Assembly (NCBI GenBank): GCA_003243455.1
Contig: QFQS01000013.1
Span: forward strand, 2,348 to 32,347
Direction of reading: 5' to 3'
From: Cereibacter sphaeroides
GTDB taxonomy: Bacteria > Pseudomonadota > Alphaproteobacteria > Rhodobacterales > Rhodobacteraceae
DNA length: 30,000 nucleotides
Shown: piece by piece, positions 3,231 to 29,571 of the stretch
Layout of the letters: the number at the start of each line of letters is the position of its first letter
Numbering within the stretch: the stretch's first letter is position 1
The notes under the pieces: generated by a model
What the model saw: only the letters and a program-made list of their open reading frames with translations
Database searches by the model: none
What the model was told of the DNA's origin: nothing
Program-made: the position numbers and the translations under genes

Positions 3231-3968
3231 CTAGCGGACGTTAGCGAGGAAGGTAGCGAGCGCGAAGCCCTCCGGGGTGGCGCTGCGTATGTTCTTTGTG
3301 CGGGTACTCGATCCGCCCAGCTTGGACCAGCCGGGATTATCTTTAGCCGCCGGGACTGGCTTCACCTCCGGCATAACGAAGCCGCCACCACACCAGATCC
3401 CGGTCTGCTTCGGATAGGCATCGCGCGCCGGGTAGATCTCCGGGTATAGGCGGTGCTGGTGGTCGTCCGGCAAGTAGCCGCCGTAATGGTACGGGTGAAA
3501 CCAATAATCACAGGGCCGCCACATCGTCGAGAGCCGGGAGATCTTCGGATTCTCCAGCATCCAGGGGACGGGCATCGAATCATCATAATGTCCGTTCTCA
3601 TAGGCGGCGAGGTCCGCCACCTCCTCCACCATGCGAGCCAGCGCGACGGCCTTGTGTTGGAAGTACGGATCCCGCGCCCGTTTCAGCTCCCACCAGCGCG
3701 CCCCGGTGCAAGTAAGGTCGGTACACTCGGCAAACGAGGCGACAAACTCAATACCTGCGCCGACCTCCTCGACGATGGTCAGCGCCTCGATCTCGGTGTG
3801 CTGCGCGTTAAACATGCGCCCGACGCGGATAAGGTTCGGCTCCTGCGGGTCTGGGTGGATCCCGTCCTCGTGCTGGCCGTCATACATCCAGCATTGATAG
3901 CCAGCCCGGAGCCACGGATCAACCATGATCCGCGTAAGGTTGAATAAGAAAATCGCCTTACGCGTCAT
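3231..3968 (-). CDS. Divergent DNA (cytosine-5) methyltransferase-like protein with degenerate motifs
   Basis: 245 aa. FAECTDLTCTGA resembles motif IV (PPCQxFSxAG), WMLENPKISRL resembles motif VI (ENV), and FLFNLTRIM..WLRAGY sits where motif I (LFxGxGG...AG) would be but lacks the glycines. A GAGG RBS precedes the ATG, which lies 1 nt after the upstream stop. Confidence 0.45.
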   Translation of the reverse strand: MTRKAIFLFNLTRIMVDPWLRAGYQCWMYDGQHEDGIHPDPQEPNLIRVGRMFNAQHTEIEALTIVEEVGAGIEFVASFAECTDLTCTGARWWELKRARDPYFQHKAVALARMVEEVADLAAYENGHYDDSMPVPWMLENPKISRLSTMWRPCDYWFHPYHYGGYLPDDHQHRLYPEIYPARDAYPKQTGIWCGGGFVMPEVKPVPAAKDNPGWSKLGGSSTRTKNIRSATPEGFALATFLANVR

Positions 3969-3969
3969 G

Positions 3970-4554
3970 TTACGGCCTCGCTGGCATAATGATCATCGTG
4001 GACGGTCCGAAAGGCGTCTTAAACTCGACGCGCATCGGCATGTTATTACCCGCGAAGTGGAGATCAACAAACGGCATCTTAATCCCGAATTTTTTCCCCA
4101 GCTTTTCGACGAGGCCCAGATATTCCGCCATCACCTTAACGTCCGTCACGGCTTTGGAGTTGTTCTTCGCGCTCTCGATCACGCGGCCCAGATCAGGATA
4201 ACGGGCGTCCACAATGTCCACGGTCCCGACGGCCAGACGCTGGCGGCGGAAGTCGAAGCCGTCCAGGTCCTGCGGCTTGTCGGCCATCTGCGCGCACCAG
4301 TACACGATCCCGGCTTCGGTATCGATCACGGCGGTGGAGTAGGCGCGCCCGGTCGGCGGCGTGGAGACATTCAGGATCAGGCCCTCCGCCGGGGCCTCGG
4401 TCAGCGCGGAGCGGGTGGAGAGCGCTACGTGGCCGTTAGACGTCTGGATCTCGTCGCCTTTGAAGTGTAAAGCGTTCAGGTAATACCGCACATCCTGGCG
4501 GCCTTTGGTGAGCTGGTGAGCGCGGAGCGCGTCAACGGGTGCATAGATGATCAT
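3970..4554 (-). CDS. Truncated DNA polymerase III beta sliding-clamp (DnaN)-like protein lacking domain I
   Basis: 194 aa. QDVRYYLN (aa 20-27, nt 4474-4497) is identical to the E. coli DnaN domain-II motif HQDVRYYLNGMLFE. SNGHVAL matches TDGHRLA, IVDARYPDLGRVI matches LVDGRFPDYRRVL, and the C-terminal MIIMPARP matches YVVMPMRL (all from memory). A GGGAGA RBS is present. Confidence 0.65.
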   Translation of the reverse strand: MIIYAPVDALRAHQLTKGRQDVRYYLNALHFKGDEIQTSNGHVALSTRSALTEAPAEGLILNVSTPPTGRAYSTAVIDTEAGIVYWCAQMADKPQDLDGFDFRRQRLAVGTVDIVDARYPDLGRVIESAKNNSKAVTDVKVMAEYLGLVEKLGKKFGIKMPFVDLHFAGNNMPMRVEFKTPFGPSTMIIMPARP

Positions 4555-4567
4555 CTTTGAGTCTCCC

Positions 4568-5269
4568 TTAAATCAGGCTTTTGCCTGCGTACATCATTTC
4601 GGTAAGCGTTACGTATTCCGTCTTGATCTCGCCACGCTTGCGGGGCTTGATCAGGAATAAGACGGACGACTTCGGATTTTTGCCGCCAGGCTCCCCGGTC
4701 ACGGCATCCACAAACGCCACGCGCCCGGACGTCTCGCCGTCGCTGGTGATATGGACGATCACGGAGGCATGATCCAGCGCTTTCTTAAACCAGGCCGTGG
4801 AGGCGTCGGAGTTGACGAGGAGGACCGTCGAGACGCTGCGCGTCTTTGCCTGCTCGATCGCTTTGGTCACAAACGGCATCGGCTCCGCGTATGGTGGGTT
4901 ACACCATGCCAGCCCGTTCTCCGCTCCCCATTGCACATCGTCCCGGAGCGCGTTCGTCTCCTCGTCCAGATAGCAGGCGCACAGGGCGTTAATCTTCTCG
5001 GCGGCCACGTCGATCCCAAACTCGCCGAAACGCTTACGCGCCCAGGCGAAAAGCCACTCCGGCGTCCGCCACTTCTGGCGCACTTTGTCCGGCGTCTTGC
5101 TGCCCTTGAAACGGCGACCGCTCACGCGGTTCTCGTCGTCGGCCATGATCTCGTTAGTCGCTTTCTGGCCGATGGCCGCGAGCTGGGTCATAACGCCGTG
5201 GGCCACGCCATGCTCCGCGCCTGCCTGCTCCAGCATTTCGATCGTGCTCTTGTCGTTCTCGTCTTTCAT
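4568..5269 (-). CDS. Phage Dam-family DNA N6-adenine methyltransferase
   Basis: 233 aa. It has WRTPEWLF..., the catalytic NPPY motif (WCNPPYAEP) and the ...RVAF... layout typical of the phage 'Dam' N6-A MTase family. An AAAGGA RBS is present. Confidence 0.85.
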   Translation of the reverse strand: MKDENDKSTIEMLEQAGAEHGVAHGVMTQLAAIGQKATNEIMADDENRVSGRRFKGSKTPDKVRQKWRTPEWLFAWARKRFGEFGIDVAAEKINALCACYLDEETNALRDDVQWGAENGLAWCNPPYAEPMPFVTKAIEQAKTRSVSTVLLVNSDASTAWFKKALDHASVIVHITSDGETSGRVAFVDAVTGEPGGKNPKSSVLFLIKPRKRGEIKTEYVTLTEMMYAGKSLI

Positions 5270-5299
5270 TGGATTATCCTTTGTTGGTGGATCGCAATT

Positions 5300-5328
5300 A
5301 ACATAATGGAAGCGTGATTTTATTTCAA
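5300..5328 (-). promoter_or_regulatory. Putative promoter of the MTase/clamp operon
   Basis: The minus strand reads TTGAAA-17 nt (TAAAATCACGCTTCCAT)-TATGTT. The spacer carries the recurrent ATCACG motif. Confidence 0.45.
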
Positions 5329-5408
5329 GAGGAAAATGTGATTTACTTGTGTTGTCTCTTTCCTTCGTCGGAAAAAATTAGCGCCCGCTGGTATCGGTCG
5401 CGCCCATT

Positions 5409-5434
5409 GGCCCCTCGTGCGGGGCCTTTTTTTT
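5409..5434 (+). terminator. Strong hairpin plus T8, oriented for the + strand, inside a minus-strand gene block
   Basis: GGCCCC-tcgtgc-GGGGCC followed by TTTTTTTT. On the minus strand the hairpin has an A tract before it and no U tract after it. The primase stop codon (5433-5435) lies in the T tract. Confidence 0.5.
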
Positions 5435-6245
5435 ACCCAAACGCGCCGCAATAGTCAGCGCCCCAGCAAGCCCTCCCCGTCCGATCGTGCCGATACATCC
5501 AGATCTCGTCCGGGTCAGTCGCCACCATGCGAAGCTCCCGATCGCCCTCATACTCCAGCGCCACCTCGACGGCATTACCCGGCGTAAACGTCAGCCAGAC
5601 CTCGGCCCCTGTCCGCGCGGCCACCTTTGCAGCATGGCCGGGATCGGCCACCAGATAAGCCGTCTTGCCCCCGGCGACTGGGTGGATCAGGCCGTAGGAT
5701 CCCCACGTAGGGCCACCAGCGGCAAACGTCACGGAACGGTCCGGCGCGACCTTCGCCACGTTGCAGGGCGATCCCCCCATCGCACGGAAGCACGGCACAT
5801 ACAGGAAGCCGCCGCGCATGGTCCCTTTACTCATGATCAGCTCGACCTCCTCCGGCTTGAGGCTCCAGTCCTCGCGGGGCCGCTGCTGCATGGCTGCGAA
5901 TTTCTTCGCCTCTTTGACGATGGTTTCCCGCTTCTCCGGGGTGAGTCCGCCGATCCAGTCGCCCAGGTCGTTGATCGCCTCGTTGAATGGCTGGTTACGG
6001 GAGGCCATAAACCAAAACATCCCATCACGCGCGCCGCCACACGAGCCGGAGCAATACGCGAAGCCGTCCCGGCGTTTTTCCTTGTCCTTGTGGCCCCAGC
6101 GAAAACGGTCGTTACCTCCACATATCGGGCATGGTTGATGCCGCCCCTTGAATATGGCGCGGTCCCAGCCGCACAGCTCGATCAGGACTTGCTCCCATTT
6201 GTCCGGCATGGCGGCCAGTACATCCTCTTTTTTATAAATTGCCAT
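5433..6245 (-). CDS. DNA primase-like protein (P4-type primase Zn-ribbon plus Toprim-like domain)
   Basis: 270 aa. It has the HQPCPICGGNDRFRW zinc-ribbon signature and a C-terminal YLVADPGHAAKVAARTGAEVWLTF Toprim-like segment. A GGAGG RBS is present. Confidence 0.75.
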   Translation of the reverse strand: MAIYKKEDVLAAMPDKWEQVLIELCGWDRAIFKGRHQPCPICGGNDRFRWGHKDKEKRRDGFAYCSGSCGGARDGMFWFMASRNQPFNEAINDLGDWIGGLTPEKRETIVKEAKKFAAMQQRPREDWSLKPEEVELIMSKGTMRGGFLYVPCFRAMGGSPCNVAKVAPDRSVTFAAGGPTWGSYGLIHPVAGGKTAYLVADPGHAAKVAARTGAEVWLTFTPGNAVEVALEYEGDRELRMVATDPDEIWMYRHDRTGRACWGADYCGAFG

Positions 6246-6267
6246 GTTGTCCTCCGGTTAATTCTGC

Positions 6268-6300
6268 ATTACTATAAATCACGCTTTAATGATATTACAA
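6268..6300. promoter_or_regulatory. Overlapping divergent promoters for primase (-) and helicase (+)
   Basis: The minus strand reads TTGTAA (6295-6300)-18 nt-TATAGT (6271-6276). The plus strand reads ATTACT (6268-6273)-17 nt-GATATT (6291-6296). Both spacers share AAATCACGCTT. Confidence 0.4.
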
Positions 6301-6313
6301 GGAATAAAAAGGC

Positions 6314-8368
6314 ATGGTAGAGACACTGGAGCGCCAGATAGCGGCGATCGACAAAGACGCCATACTCCGCGCGCTGGGCGACTTGCCCGTGACTCCATAC
6401 GATCATCAGTTCGTAGCGTATGAGGCTTGTCAGCAAGCGATCCGCAAATATCCCGGCCCGGTTATTGTCGATGCCGCCGTGTCTGCGGGTAAGACAATCA
6501 TGATCGCCATGCTGGCGCGCCGGATCCGCGATCTCGGCTATCCGGCCATGATCCTGTCTCGTCAGGCGGAGATCATCGATCAGGACCATGAGGAGCTGAA
6601 AAACTTCCAGGTGTGGTCCTCGATCTACTGCGCGGGCATCAATAACACGAAGTCGAACAAATTCCCGATCATCGTCGGCTCGGAGGGTACGGTGATCGGC
6701 GGCATTAAGCCAGGCGAAAAGCTGGCGAACTATGCGCCGCTGTTCCTGCTGATCGATGAATGCCATCACGTCAACATTGAGGACCTGATCCGCTCGGAAA
6801 ATCGCAAGGTCCCGGAGTACCTGGTGGAGAATGGGGCCTATGTGCTGGACGAGTTCGGCGAAAAGGTTCAGGTAGGGGAACACGTCGGAGAGACTTACGA
6901 AGAAATGATCGAGAGTGGCCGCGCCGCCTATACGATCATCATTCGCACGTTTCAGGAGCGATGCCGCCGCGTCCACGGTAAGGAGCTGCGGATCATCGGT
7001 TACACCGGGACGCCTTACCGGGGCTGCGAGTCCATCATCCAGCCGGACCTTAAGGAGCCGGGATTCTGGCGTAAGAAGGTATGCGAGATCTCTACGGAAT
7101 ACCTGGTAAGCGTCGGCGCTGTCGTCCCGACACGCTTCGGGATCTCCGATCTCCGGTACGACCTGAGCCAGTGGCGATCGACGGGCGAGGAGGGGATCAA
7201 GGAGTTTTCCGACGCTGATATGAAAGCGATGGAAGCCGCGATCCACAAGGACAAAAAGCTAACACAAAAAATCATGGCGGAAGTGTACGCCATCACCGAA
7301 AACCGTAATGGGGTGCTGGTGACGTGCGCCGGGGTCCGCCACTGTAAAGAGGCCGCCGCCGCGCTGCCGGAGGGGACGCCGTTCGCCATCATCACGGAGG
7401 ACACGACGCCGCGCAAACGCCGCGAGATCCTCAAAGATGCCAATACGGGCAAAATAAAATTCATCTTCCAGGTTAACGCGCTCACGACGGGCGTCAACGT
7501 GCCTTTCTGGGACACGTCGGTGATCCTGCGTAAGATTGGCTCCCTTACCCTGTTAACCCAGCTCTTAGGCCGTGGGATGCGTATTCTTAAGCCGTTCCAT
7601 CTGTCCGCCGGGTACACGAAAGAGGATCACCTGGTACTCGACTACGCCGGGACGCTCGACGAGCTGGGATCGTTGTACTTCTCCCCGCTGCTGGAGGCTT
7701 ACCAGCATAACGCCGACGAGAGCAAGGGTAAGCTGGTTCAGCGCTGCCCGAAATGTTACGCGGCTGGCCGCACGGTAATGAATGGCGAACATGCTCGCCG
7801 TTGCCGCTGGGTGGATCCTGATACGAAAATCCGATGTGACCACTTTTTCACGTTCATAACCTGCGACGACTGGAAGGACTCCAGCGGGAAGATCGTCACG
7901 CAAAAAGGCTGCGGCGCGAAAAATGACATTGTGGCCCGCATTTGCCGCTGCTGCGGGAATAGCCTCGTGGATCCGAATGAGAAGCTATCCCACACGGCAT
8001 ACAGCAAGGATGATTATTGCACGGTCAGCGATTTCAGGATCGAGCCAGCGCGAGGCCGTAATGGCAACGATACGGGCGGCGTGGCTTTCCGGTACGTTCT
8101 GGAGCGTGACGGCGTGGAGTTCATCGCGTGGCAAGTGTTCTGGCCGGGTAGCGATTCCCCCCAGGCGCGCAAGGAGTGGCTACATAACGCGGTCAATAAG
8201 CACGTACTGGACGGAAGCATGAGAAAACAGATCAAGGAGTGCCGGACGGTCGGCGCTGTCATGAGTTACGCCGGGTACTTTATGCGCCCGCTCAAAGTGA
8301 CTCACCGCAAGATCGGCAAGGGTAAAGACATTATTTCGAACAAAATTTTTCTGAATGAGGACTTTTAA
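6314..8368 (+). CDS. SF2 (DEAD/DEAH, type III restriction Res-like) helicase with a C-terminal multi-Cys zinc module
   Basis: 684 aa. It has Walker A DAAVSAGKT, Walker B/DExH LLIDECHH and helicase C-domain motifs (TTGVNVP, LLGRGMR). The C-terminus has CPKC...C..C and C...CRCCG clusters. Confidence 0.9.
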   Translation: MVETLERQIAAIDKDAILRALGDLPVTPYDHQFVAYEACQQAIRKYPGPVIVDAAVSAGKTIMIAMLARRIRDLGYPAMILSRQAEIIDQDHEELKNFQVWSSIYCAGINNTKSNKFPIIVGSEGTVIGGIKPGEKLANYAPLFLLIDECHHVNIEDLIRSENRKVPEYLVENGAYVLDEFGEKVQVGEHVGETYEEMIESGRAAYTIIIRTFQERCRRVHGKELRIIGYTGTPYRGCESIIQPDLKEPGFWRKKVCEISTEYLVSVGAVVPTRFGISDLRYDLSQWRSTGEEGIKEFSDADMKAMEAAIHKDKKLTQKIMAEVYAITENRNGVLVTCAGVRHCKEAAAALPEGTPFAIITEDTTPRKRREILKDANTGKIKFIFQVNALTTGVNVPFWDTSVILRKIGSLTLLTQLLGRGMRILKPFHLSAGYTKEDHLVLDYAGTLDELGSLYFSPLLEAYQHNADESKGKLVQRCPKCYAAGRTVMNGEHARRCRWVDPDTKIRCDHFFTFITCDDWKDSSGKIVTQKGCGAKNDIVARICRCCGNSLVDPNEKLSHTAYSKDDYCTVSDFRIEPARGRNGNDTGGVAFRYVLERDGVEFIAWQVFWPGSDSPQARKEWLHNAVNKHVLDGSMRKQIKECRTVGAVMSYAGYFMRPLKVTHRKIGKGKDIISNKIFLNEDF

Positions 8369-27336: not shown

Positions 27337-29571
27337 TTATTGCGCGGCACGTTCCAGGGTGCTGTCGGCCTGCTGCTGCGCCTGGCGCTCGGCCAGTTGC
27401 TGCGCTGCGCGGTCGCTCTGGATCTGGTGGCCCTGCCCGATGGATTTCAGGAACAAGTCGGCCTGTTTGTGCGCGTCCTGGCTCTGGGCGGTGACGTACT
27501 TCTGGAGGATAGCCACGGCGGCCATTAGCTGATCCTGCGGGATAGCTGCGGCCTCGGCCATCGTCTTGACGGTCTGCGCCTGCTTGAGCTGGCCGTCTGC
27601 CTGCGTCCCCTGCGCCTTGAGCTGCAATTCTAAGCGCTTGTTGTCCTGCTCCATAACGGCGGCCTTGCCCTGGTCTGCCACGCCCTGCGCTGCGACCATC
27701 TGCGCGTCCGGCTGGTCCTGCTGGCTCTGCTGGGCCTGCGCTACCATCTGTTTTTCCTCGTCCGTCTGCGGCTTCACAATGCCGGAGAGTAAAAGCTGGT
27801 TGCGGGTGTACTCTTTGAAGTCCTGGAGGCCCTCGCCGTCCATGTTCGCAATGATCAGGCTCATGACGATCGTCGCGTTAGGGTCGCCCGGTTGCATGGT
27901 CGCTAACAGGTTAGTCAGGCTGCGGACGGTCTGCTGGCGTCGCGTCTGGGAGGACTCGCCGACGTCGGCAACAATTTCATATTTGCCGCGCTTGAGGTCG
28001 TTAATCGCGATCACTTCCTTCGTCTCGCGATCGACGACTTTCCCGGTCATTAACACGAGGTCGTCGCTCCCGTCCTCCTGCTGGATCCTCACGTAAGACT
28101 CGGAGCCGTAAACCTTGCGAGCGGCGGACAGGTAGACGCGGCCACAATGGCGCAACGTCTTAGCCAGGTTGTCCATGTAGAGCGCGCCCTGGCCGTCCAT
28201 GCGGGCGAAAATAGCCTCCACGGTTTCGGTCGCCAGGTTAGACGGCAGCGCTTCGAGCTGGGAGGATCCGACAATCTGCTGGATAGTCGCCCCGGTGTAC
28301 TGGAGGACGGCAGCGAGCGCCGGAGAGAGCGGAGTCGCCGGAGTATAGCCCAGCGGTCCGGCCTGCTGGACGACCTCACCAGACGCATTACGGAGCGATT
28401 TAGCGGGCAGGTATGCGGGGCGCTTCGTGTTGCGATCCCCCCAGGCGTTGGCGAGATTCCCAGGGATCATGTCGATATCCATGATCGGGATGTTGTCGCC
28501 GCCTGCCTGCGCGGCCTGGTCGGCCATCATGGACACGATCAGGTTTTCAAGACGCTGGGCGTCCATCGCGAGCGTGGCGTGGCCCATCACGCGCTCCTGG
28601 TTGTCGATAAACGAGCGGCGCGCGTTGAAGATAAAGACCGGGATCCATTCGAACGGGATCAGCTTCGGCTCCTCGATCCACTCCCCGCCGGAAAACAGGC
28701 CGCAATAGACCTTACGACGTTTGACGCGGCGATCCTTGAGCTTTTTCCAGCCTGCGGCCTTAAGCTCGTCGAAAACCTGCTCCATGTCGTCCTCGTCGTA
28801 TACCTCCGTTTCCCCGGTGAGCGGGTTCTGGTAGGAGATCACGGTGGTGTCCTCGATCTTCACCTCATAGTAACGGGCGATATAAATCGCGTCTTTAGAG
28901 GCCCAGTCAAACCATTTGCCCGTGTTCAGCTCCATGAGGTCCTCCGGGGCCATCGCGTCCGGGTAACGCTCCTCGTACTTCTCCGGGGTCATGCTGAATA
29001 GCTCGGCCATCCACATAGCATCACTGCGATCGTACATTTTGGAGTCAGGATCGACAAAGAGGCACGAGGCCGGATCGTAGATCGGGTAAAAGACGATATG
29101 ACGCTCCTCATTGTCGGGATCAAATTCGTCCTCCAGCTCCGTGTCCATGCGAAACGCGCCCATCCCGCCGTCGATGCCGTCGCCGTAAGTGTTATCGACG
29201 GACTCCGGCCCGTTGCTCTCGTTGTAGTCGGCGCGGAATTTGCCGTTTAGCTTGTCGGCCAGCTCCTCGGATGCCTTTTCGTCCTTCGGACGGAATACCA
29301 CGGAGACACGGTTAAGGCGGTAATCGGTGATCAGGCGGTCGCACTCGCGGGCCACTTTGTTAAGTTCGAATCGAGGGTATTTCTCGAATCGTTCATCATC
29401 CATCGCAAAGCCGGAGTTAGTTGATCCTTCCCACTGCGCGCCCGGAATACGGACAAAGCGCTGGGTTTCGATCATTTTCTTGCGGCTTTGCTCCTCGCTG
29501 GCGATCGTCTGGCTCAGGCGCTTACGCGCCGTCTCATGCCAGTTCTGGGCCGATTTGGTGACTCGTGCCAT
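27337..29571 (-). CDS. Portal protein (P22 gp1-like, with a long C-terminal helical barrel)
   Basis: 744 aa. IARYYEVKIEDTTVISYQNPLTGETEVY...LKDRRVKRRKVY matches P22 [28 protein letters not shown]...IAERQIKRRRVY. The C-terminal GIVKPQTDEEKQMVAQAQQSQQDQPDAQMVAAQGV matches [36 protein letters not shown] (from memory). A GGAGA RBS is present. Confidence 0.95.
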   Translation of the reverse strand: MARVTKSAQNWHETARKRLSQTIASEEQSRKKMIETQRFVRIPGAQWEGSTNSGFAMDDERFEKYPRFELNKVARECDRLITDYRLNRVSVVFRPKDEKASEELADKLNGKFRADYNESNGPESVDNTYGDGIDGGMGAFRMDTELEDEFDPDNEERHIVFYPIYDPASCLFVDPDSKMYDRSDAMWMAELFSMTPEKYEERYPDAMAPEDLMELNTGKWFDWASKDAIYIARYYEVKIEDTTVISYQNPLTGETEVYDEDDMEQVFDELKAAGWKKLKDRRVKRRKVYCGLFSGGEWIEEPKLIPFEWIPVFIFNARRSFIDNQERVMGHATLAMDAQRLENLIVSMMADQAAQAGGDNIPIMDIDMIPGNLANAWGDRNTKRPAYLPAKSLRNASGEVVQQAGPLGYTPATPLSPALAAVLQYTGATIQQIVGSSQLEALPSNLATETVEAIFARMDGQGALYMDNLAKTLRHCGRVYLSAARKVYGSESYVRIQQEDGSDDLVLMTGKVVDRETKEVIAINDLKRGKYEIVADVGESSQTRRQQTVRSLTNLLATMQPGDPNATIVMSLIIANMDGEGLQDFKEYTRNQLLLSGIVKPQTDEEKQMVAQAQQSQQDQPDAQMVAAQGVADQGKAAVMEQDNKRLELQLKAQGTQADGQLKQAQTVKTMAEAAAIPQDQLMAAVAILQKYVTAQSQDAHKQADLFLKSIGQGHQIQSDRAAQQLAERQAQQQADSTLERAAQ

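Follow-up and report, generated by a model that had tools for sequence, protein, structure and literature searches.

Introduction

The bacterial sliding clamp (DnaN, or beta) carries between its domains II and III a pocket that docks clamp-binding motifs (QL[SD]LF-like), and the clients of this pocket include the alpha and epsilon subunits of DNA polymerase III (Pol III), the clamp-loader component delta, Hda, Pol II/IV/V and MutS/MutL. The Escherichia coli protein (PDB 1MMI/2POL; TIGR00663; PF00712/PF02767/PF02768) is an acidic polypeptide of 366 residues, organised in three ~120-residue domains and endowed with a dimer interface. Here we describe a protein encoded in a 30,000-nucleotide stretch of DNA (hereafter the window; positions 2,348 to 32,347, forward strand, of contig QFQS01000013.1 in assembly GCA_003243455.1, deposited as Cereibacter sphaeroides), which at 194 residues shares with beta its ancestry, predicted fold, QDVRYYLN motif, pocket positions and C-terminal MPxR strand, whereas it is basic, lacks both sides of the interface and falls below the curated family cut-offs. 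We refer to it as the mini-clamp.

Several described systems resemble parts of this picture. E. coli beta*, reported by Skaliter and colleagues in 1996, is an internal-start, UV-induced dnaN product that spans domains II-III and reportedly works as a clamp. It starts at about beta residue 135, nearly where the mini-clamp does (mini-clamp residue 10 aligns to beta 139), and is likewise devoid of domain I, but it keeps the whole of domain III, whose interface-bearing half is missing from the mini-clamp. The herpesvirus proteins UL42 and UL44, which hold their polymerase via a peptide-binding groove, are viral clamp-fold factors that dispense with both ring closure and a loader. Any likeness would be one of working principle only: they resemble PCNA, contain two complete domains and have a virus-encoded polymerase as partner, whereas the mini-clamp is beta-derived, comprises ~1.5 predicted domains and usually occurs without a phage polymerase. 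Phage clamp inhibitors such as Twort Gp168 (PMC8565349) are comparable in that they too are made early by phages and act on the host clamp system; they, however, are small proteins that bind the host ring (Gp168 sits in its DNA channel), whereas the mini-clamp copies part of the clamp itself and would compete for its clients.

The closest relatives in print are the short phage polIII-beta homologues noted by Kazlauskas & Venclovas in 2011, who described them as spanning the second and third domains and assumed that horizontally acquired clamp homologues are probably dispensable for replication (PMC3201878). The mini-clamp shares with these proteins (also phrog_3007) its phage origin, a start at domain II, a length class of 165-215 residues and a profile match, and differs from the published two-domain description in that its class is without half of the third domain. 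The family is thus already known, being listed in GenBank and PHROGs, with short forms in print since 2011, and a literature search for a functional study of the short phage clamps found none. What we add is a deletion map, a quantitative test of the pocket, the shift to basic charge, a negative neighbourhood census and the absence of clamp loaders.

Results

A DnaN homologue of about one and a half predicted domains

Single-sequence searches are too weak on their own to place the mini-clamp, and it is family profiles that settle its homology to DnaN. Alone, the sequence matched no Pfam family at E<=0.1, scored 10.4 bits against TIGR00663 (cut-off 137.65) and reached PDB beta clamps marginally (phmmer E 0.05), a match owed to QDVRYYLN. 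A 16-sequence family profile, by comparison, found beta clamps at E 4e-9; a 64-sequence profile searched against the PDB did so at E 2.2e-29 (105.7 bits), with beta clamps making up 45 of its 45 matches; and a hidden Markov model (HMM) of 157 family sequences scored 74.9 bits on E. coli K-12 beta. These profile matches uphold the DnaN relationship proposed in the initial annotation of the locus, which had been made from the sequence alone, and alignment to K-12 beta recovers each of the elements on which that proposal was built. QDVRYYLN (residues 20-27), the domain II signature, is identical to beta 149-156; SNGHVA (39-44), holding the GH..A strand, pairs with TDGHRL (172-177); VDARYPDLGRV (115-125), the VD.R.PD..RV segment, with VDGRFPDYRRV (237-247); and IIMPAR (188-193), the (I/V)MP.R ending, with VVMPMR (360-365). 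The length contrast drawn there, 194 residues against ~366, is likewise correct.

Structure prediction points the same way. The AlphaFold2 single-chain model built from the 64-sequence alignment has a mean predicted local distance difference test score (pLDDT) of 93.0 and a predicted template modelling score of 0.88, and an earlier model from 16 sequences (pLDDT 86) shows unchanged topology. Foldseek retrieved 44 PDB chains at E<=1e-3, of which ranks 1-37 are all bacterial beta clamps (probability 1.0; template modelling score <=0.60, query-normalised), followed by PCNAs, so that the predicted fold is that of a clamp rather than an unrelated one. Taken together, profiles and model identify the mini-clamp as a DnaN homologue with a predicted DNA-clamp fold.

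Profile alignments further define what has been kept. Mini-clamp residues ~1-125 fall on beta 129-254, or ~8-125 on beta 137-254, namely domain II and the inter-domain linker. The remainder, from ~136 to 193, falls on beta 313-365, where domain III has its second half, of beta-alpha-beta-beta-beta order. In the family HMM, nodes 10-123 correspond to beta 137-254 and nodes 124-184 to beta 313-365, the domain III alignment being anchored by EIGFNVSY of beta against the family consensus eigfnaeY and by the MPxR C-terminus. Nothing in the protein corresponds to domain I or to beta ~255-312, the N-terminal half of domain III. In both models, moreover, a loop (residues 64-73, STPPTGRAYS), whose P67 is conserved in 93% of the family, lies where helix alpha2 of domain II would sit, and this helix has probably been lost as well. 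The modelled architecture is one domain plus a half domain, which, in agreement with the alignments, describes the mini-clamp as ~1.5 predicted clamp domains. The initial annotation was accordingly right about the loss of domain I, whereas its picture of two shortened domains does not hold, half of domain III being deleted too and helix alpha2 probably with it.

This deletion map bears directly on ring formation. The native beta ring closes through I78/F106 of domain I on I272/L273 of domain III, with interface salt bridges that involve E298-E304 (PMC11139829). All of these residues fall in regions without a mini-clamp counterpart, and neither half of the interface that closes the native ring is present in the alignments. 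Of the four helices that line the channel in domains II-III, the mini-clamp has counterparts for only two, and the third helix of the model (122-131) matches nothing in beta. A PCNA-like trimeric ring, put forward in the initial annotation as one way for a shortened protomer to close, is disfavoured because both sides of the native interface are lost and no more than two of the four channel-lining helices are matched.

Conservation concentrates on the equivalent of the beta docking pocket

In E. coli beta, subsite I of the pocket comprises R152, L155, T172, G174, H175, R176, L177, P242, R246, V247, V360 and M362, and subsite II comprises H175, N320, Y323, V344, M362, P363, M364 and R365 (PMC11139829). 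All 18 pocket positions have an aligned equivalent in the mini-clamp, and 11 of the 18 are identical to beta (R23, L26, G41, H42, P120, R124, V125, Y145, M190, P191 and R193). Conservation was scored per column in a 157-sequence family alignment drawn from a deep profile search, with columns mapped to beta via the family HMM. The mean top-residue frequency is 0.70 in the pocket columns and 0.375 overall, a value as high being reached in 0 of 100,000 permutations, and pocket positions supply 10 of the 20 most conserved columns of the family (hypergeometric p 3e-7). By this sequence measure no feature of the family is better conserved than the pocket. Indeed, R23 (98%), L26 (94%), D21 and Y25 (92% each) are near-constant within QDVRYYLN, as are G41 (99%) and H42 (92%) within SNGHVA, P120 (98%) in the inter-domain segment, and M190 (97%), P191 (94%) and R193 (85%) in the C-terminal strand. 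The position of N320 is Met in this mini-clamp and Asn in 64% of the family.

On balance, we favour a model in which the mini-clamp, a piece of beta adapted to phage use, acts as a non-ring, free-standing module that offers a docking pocket to host proteins bearing clamp-binding motifs. Early in infection, it would bind one or more such proteins through these motifs, with either of two outcomes: host Pol III or loader components (delta) could be brought to the phage primase-helicase machinery, or regulators and repair factors (Hda, MutS/L, translesion polymerases) could be titrated off the host clamp. Among the possibilities raised in the initial annotation, that of a decoy or partner-binding protein fits best, because conservation in the family concentrates on the pocket.

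Basic charge and the question of a DNA-bound clamp

The mini-clamp also departs from beta in its charge. Its isoelectric point (pI) is 8.6, against 5.25 for E. coli beta, and the family as a whole is basic (median pI 8.5, with 70% of members above 7.5; median net charge +2), whereas full-length phage DnaNs from the same DVRYYLNG scan (described below) have pI values of 4.6-5.8 in 7 of 8 cases. Conserved basic columns include R11 in the retained first helix and K151/K154 in the retained helix of domain III. Such a distribution of charge is compatible with direct contact to DNA or to an acidic partner.

Several considerations weigh against the docking-module model. Peptide binding is deduced from residue conservation, and the pocket residues are also the best conserved of DnaN in general and serve as alignment anchors, which makes the enrichment test less than fully independent. 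In this lineage, moreover, subsite II carries substitutions (N320 to Met142, M364 to Ala192), and these changes may shift peptide specificity away from that of beta. Finally, the basic character of the family and the placement of conserved Lys and Arg on the two retained inner helices hint at a DNA-contacting role for which a purely soluble decoy would have no need.

This last point leads to a less probable alternative, to which we would give perhaps a minor share of belief, namely that the mini-clamp is a true processivity factor on DNA, tethering host Pol III without a loader either through a new oligomer, arc or ring or by binding DNA directly via a basic face, in the manner of the non-ring UL42 and UL44. 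In the arc variant two protomers would complete each other's half-domain III, and a higher-order ring is the other possibility. Besides the basic pI values, set against acidic beta and acidic full-length phage DnaNs, and the conserved R11, K151 and K154 on the retained inner helices, this alternative can draw on the conservation of the equivalent of the beta 148-152 loop, on segment 132-142 (the equivalent of the beta strand EIGFN), which forms no strand in the monomer models and could pair with another chain, on carriers without a clamp loader (0 of 13 records), on the precedent of E. coli beta*, reported to work as a clamp from domains II-III, and on the fact that loader-free, non-ring viral clamps are established (PMC4889955). 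It is opposed by the loss of both native interface halves, by the matching of just two of four channel-lining helices, with a model helix at 122-131 foreign to beta, and by the smallness of the median net charge. Its most specific form strikes us as more doubtful still: a loader-independent tether on phage DNA, held by the basic inner face and possibly arranged as a two-fold dimer that completes the half-domains III, in which the beta-type pocket would hold the host Pol III core or delta. If true, phages without a polymerase would acquire a processivity or recruitment factor of their own, made from a piece of the host clamp and the counterpart in bacterial viruses of UL42/UL44.

A widespread phage family under misleading labels

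The deep profile search, which covered 1.84 billion cluster representatives, returned 3125 clusters at E<=1e-3, of which 437 reach E<=1e-10, so that truncated DnaN-like proteins, whose spread the initial annotation had proposed to survey with HMMs, prove widespread. The best 150 clusters are nearly all 165-215 residues long and matched end to end. By tblastn the gene was found in 187 phage records (Salmonella, Escherichia, Klebsiella, Shigella, Vibrio, Shewanella and others), where GenBank labels vary between 'DNA polymerase III beta subunit' (for example in KpV2811, VSt472 and Shewanella phage 1/41), 'RusA-like Holliday junction resolvase' and 'hypothetical protein'.

A scan of IMG/VR with a degenerate DNA pattern for DVRYYLNG, a sample biased to members with that exact motif, gave 80 loci. 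The mini forms share a constant N-terminal cut point, carrying the motif 18-34 residues from the start (149 in beta), and continue for 143-170 residues after it (209 in beta); many of them have the exact MPMRL ending of E. coli beta. The same scan returned full-length phage DnaNs as well as forms of 244-257 residues (contigs L049, L066 and L083) that start at domain II and align through beta ~305-309. By alignment the latter are true two-domain DnaN relatives, and their extent points to a graded series in phages of three, two and ~1.5 domains.

The mini-clamp matches phrog_3007 over its full length (E 2.2e-44, residues 1-194 on profile positions 1-186 of 190), a family labelled as a RusA-like Holliday junction resolvase. 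That label, repeated in several GenBank records, together with the published assumption that acquired clamp homologues were dispensable (PMC3201878), would speak for a protein that is either a RusA-like resolvase or a functionless remnant of a captured host dnaN, a pair of options we regard as very improbable. We rejected the resolvase, since no Pfam RusA match is obtained at E<=0.1 and all significant sequence and fold matches are clamps. As for decay, the orthologue in Klebsiella phage vB_KpnS_IME279, annotated as a 'hypothetical protein', shows 96.9% protein identity, and the two genes differ at 16 synonymous and 6 non-synonymous sites, giving a ratio of non-synonymous to synonymous rates (dN/dS) of 0.11, which argues for a gene under purifying selection rather than a decaying remnant; hundreds of diverged clusters, in addition, keep both the length and the pocket residues. 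This ratio, the ribosome-binding site and coupling described below and the hundreds of full-length relatives of similar size all speak for a real gene and not the pseudogene considered as a possible outcome at the outset. The phrog_3007 label has spread through many phage annotations (e.g., NC_070846.1 and NC_016566.1), and the widespread 'RusA-like Holliday junction resolvase' annotation should be replaced.

Operon and genomic context

The coordinates of the gene, its motifs and the neighbouring features are collected in Table 1.

Table 1. Features of the mini-clamp locus and of further genes discussed in the text (window coordinates)
Feature	Position	Strand	Description
Mini beta-clamp coding sequence	3970..4554	-	194 aa, 21.4 kDa, pI 8.6; ATG start
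QDVRYYLN codons	4474..4497	-	Residues 20-27; equivalents of R152, L155 and the 148-152 loop
SNGHVA codons	4423..4440	-	Residues 39-44; beta T172-L177, subsite I including bridging H175
VDARYPDLGRV codons	4180..4212	-	Residues 115-125; beta 237-247, end of domain II and linker; P242, R246 and V247 equivalents
MAEYL codons	4117..4131	-	Residues 142-146; beta N320-V324, subsite II; Y323 kept as Y145
IIMPAR codons	3976..3993	-	Residues 188-193; beta V360-R365, C-terminal strand forming both subsites
Shine-Dalgarno GGGAGA	4562..4567	-	7 nt 5' of the mini-clamp ATG, directly after the Dam stop; read from sequence
Dam stop codon TAA	4568-4570	-	Read from sequence
Dam-type N6-adenine DNA methyltransferase	4568..5269	-	233 aa, upstream operon gene; PF05869 E 1.6e-46; phrog_111; PADLOC orphan methyltransferase
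phrog_757 member	3231..3968	-	245 aa, downstream operon gene; phrog_757 label 'DNA methyltransferase'
Primase-like protein	5433-6245	-	270 aa; primase-helicase-type zinc ribbon PF08273; aligns to positions 10-303 of 667 in the primase family phrog_510
SF2 helicase	6314-8368	+	684 aa; divergent from the primase-like gene
Portal protein	27337-29571	-	744 aa; QADLF(L) at residue 703

The mini-clamp gene stands between a Dam-type methyltransferase gene and the gene of a 245-residue protein whose ATG is separated from the mini-clamp stop by 1 nt. The spacing of Dam stop, Shine-Dalgarno sequence and ATG, together with this 1-nt gap, argues that the three genes form one translationally coupled operon, and the Shine-Dalgarno site and the coupling to both neighbours are signs of expression, which would be from an early or replication-side operon. 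The 245-residue protein has a strong full-length match to phrog_757 (E 1.4e-65) and no Pfam or PADLOC match, and may be a divergent or degenerate methyltransferase.

The window belongs to a Sortsnevirus-type siphophage. Its contig is complete at 42,764 bp (79-bp terminal overlap), with a G+C content of 59.3% against 62.6% for the assembly, and its proteins are ~97% identical to those of a Klebsiella phage. The 4.55-Mb assembly has its own DnaN, of 372 residues with EETRYYLNG and 39% identity to E. coli beta, alphaproteobacterial by eye. The phage is probably a contaminant or a co-sequenced passenger rather than a prophage of this organism. The helicase gene of Table 1 is followed by genes for an exonuclease VIII-like protein, an Erf-like annealing protein, SSB and an endonuclease, and the related phage IME279 has a separate 'replicative helicase RepA' elsewhere in its genome.

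Of five named carrier phages, four, the Sortsnevirus reference among them, lack polymerases of families A, B and C. Among viral records of the DVRYYLNG scan, a PolA match was found in 2 of 7 that are at least 90% complete, from independent lineages, and none of 13 has a clamp-loader match. The general lack of polymerases and the complete lack of loaders in these records argue against a mini-clamp dedicated to a polymerase or loader of the phage itself. The search for clamp-binding motifs among phage proteins that the initial annotation had recommended, extended to the whole 42.8-kb proteome, did not yield a convincing partner: it gave 7 matches against ~5 expected by chance (a hand estimate from residue frequencies), none of the 7 at the terminus of a replication protein, and neither flanking operon protein carries a recognisable motif. 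The best-looking of the 7, QADLF(L) in the portal protein, is close to QADMF, through which E. coli Pol III alpha binds the clamp at an internal site; we judged it a chance occurrence, the portal being a structural protein and the motif low in information.

Modification genes recur beside the mini-clamp in two further genera. In Dhillonvirus EP23, a Shigella phage, mini-clamp and the nucleotide-modification protein Nmad5 (PF18757, E 2e-58) form a two-gene island (4977-6335 of that genome) lying in reverse orientation within the head/lysis module, and in KpV2811 the mini-clamp follows ParB-like and C5-methylase genes. Nmad5 is reported to trigger the Tmn defence system in Dhillonvirus (PMC11846954). 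We considered a relation to defence or anti-defence and set it aside: PADLOC has no match for the mini-clamp, and the Dhillonvirus anti-Tmn protein is another gene, whose product is described in its paper as rod-shaped and helical, with no mention of a clamp.

The suggestion from these three genera of a family-wide link to DNA-modification genes was rejected by a neighbourhood census of 52 mini-clamp loci drawn from the DVRYYLNG scan (25 lineages at 60% identity). Of the 88 genes lying at most two genes away, none encodes a methyltransferase and no two share a Pfam family, which makes the methylase link a local feature and not one of the family. Neighbours with an annotation mostly serve early functions or replication, and comprise Rep O, DnaB N-terminal domain, D5_N, Prim-Pol, PolA, SF2/SNF2 helicases, Cro, CII, ArdA, dCMP deaminase, endonuclease VII and HNH proteins. 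The same data bear on an improbable further alternative, in which the mini-clamp would be an accessory that targets or holds the neighbouring methyltransferases on replicating phage DNA, much as PCNA plays such a targeting role for DNMT1. The position of the gene between Dam and the phrog_757 member in a coupled operon and the Nmad5 and C5-methylase neighbours in EP23 and KpV2811 would be in line with such a role; set against it are the empty 25-lineage census, the lack of homology among the modification genes of the three phages and the lack of a recognisable clamp-binding motif in the flanking proteins.

Discussion

The beta pocket, itself an antibiotic target, is the hub that coordinates every bacterial polymerase along with the clamp loader, Hda and mismatch repair. 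A phage family that has shed the ring and retained this pocket resembles a natural device for catching the clients of the clamp or for diverting them, and could serve as a minimal monomeric pocket scaffold for inhibitor screening. An answer to whether the mini-clamp recruits host Pol III or sequesters regulators would reveal the way in which small phages without a polymerase gain control of the host replisome.

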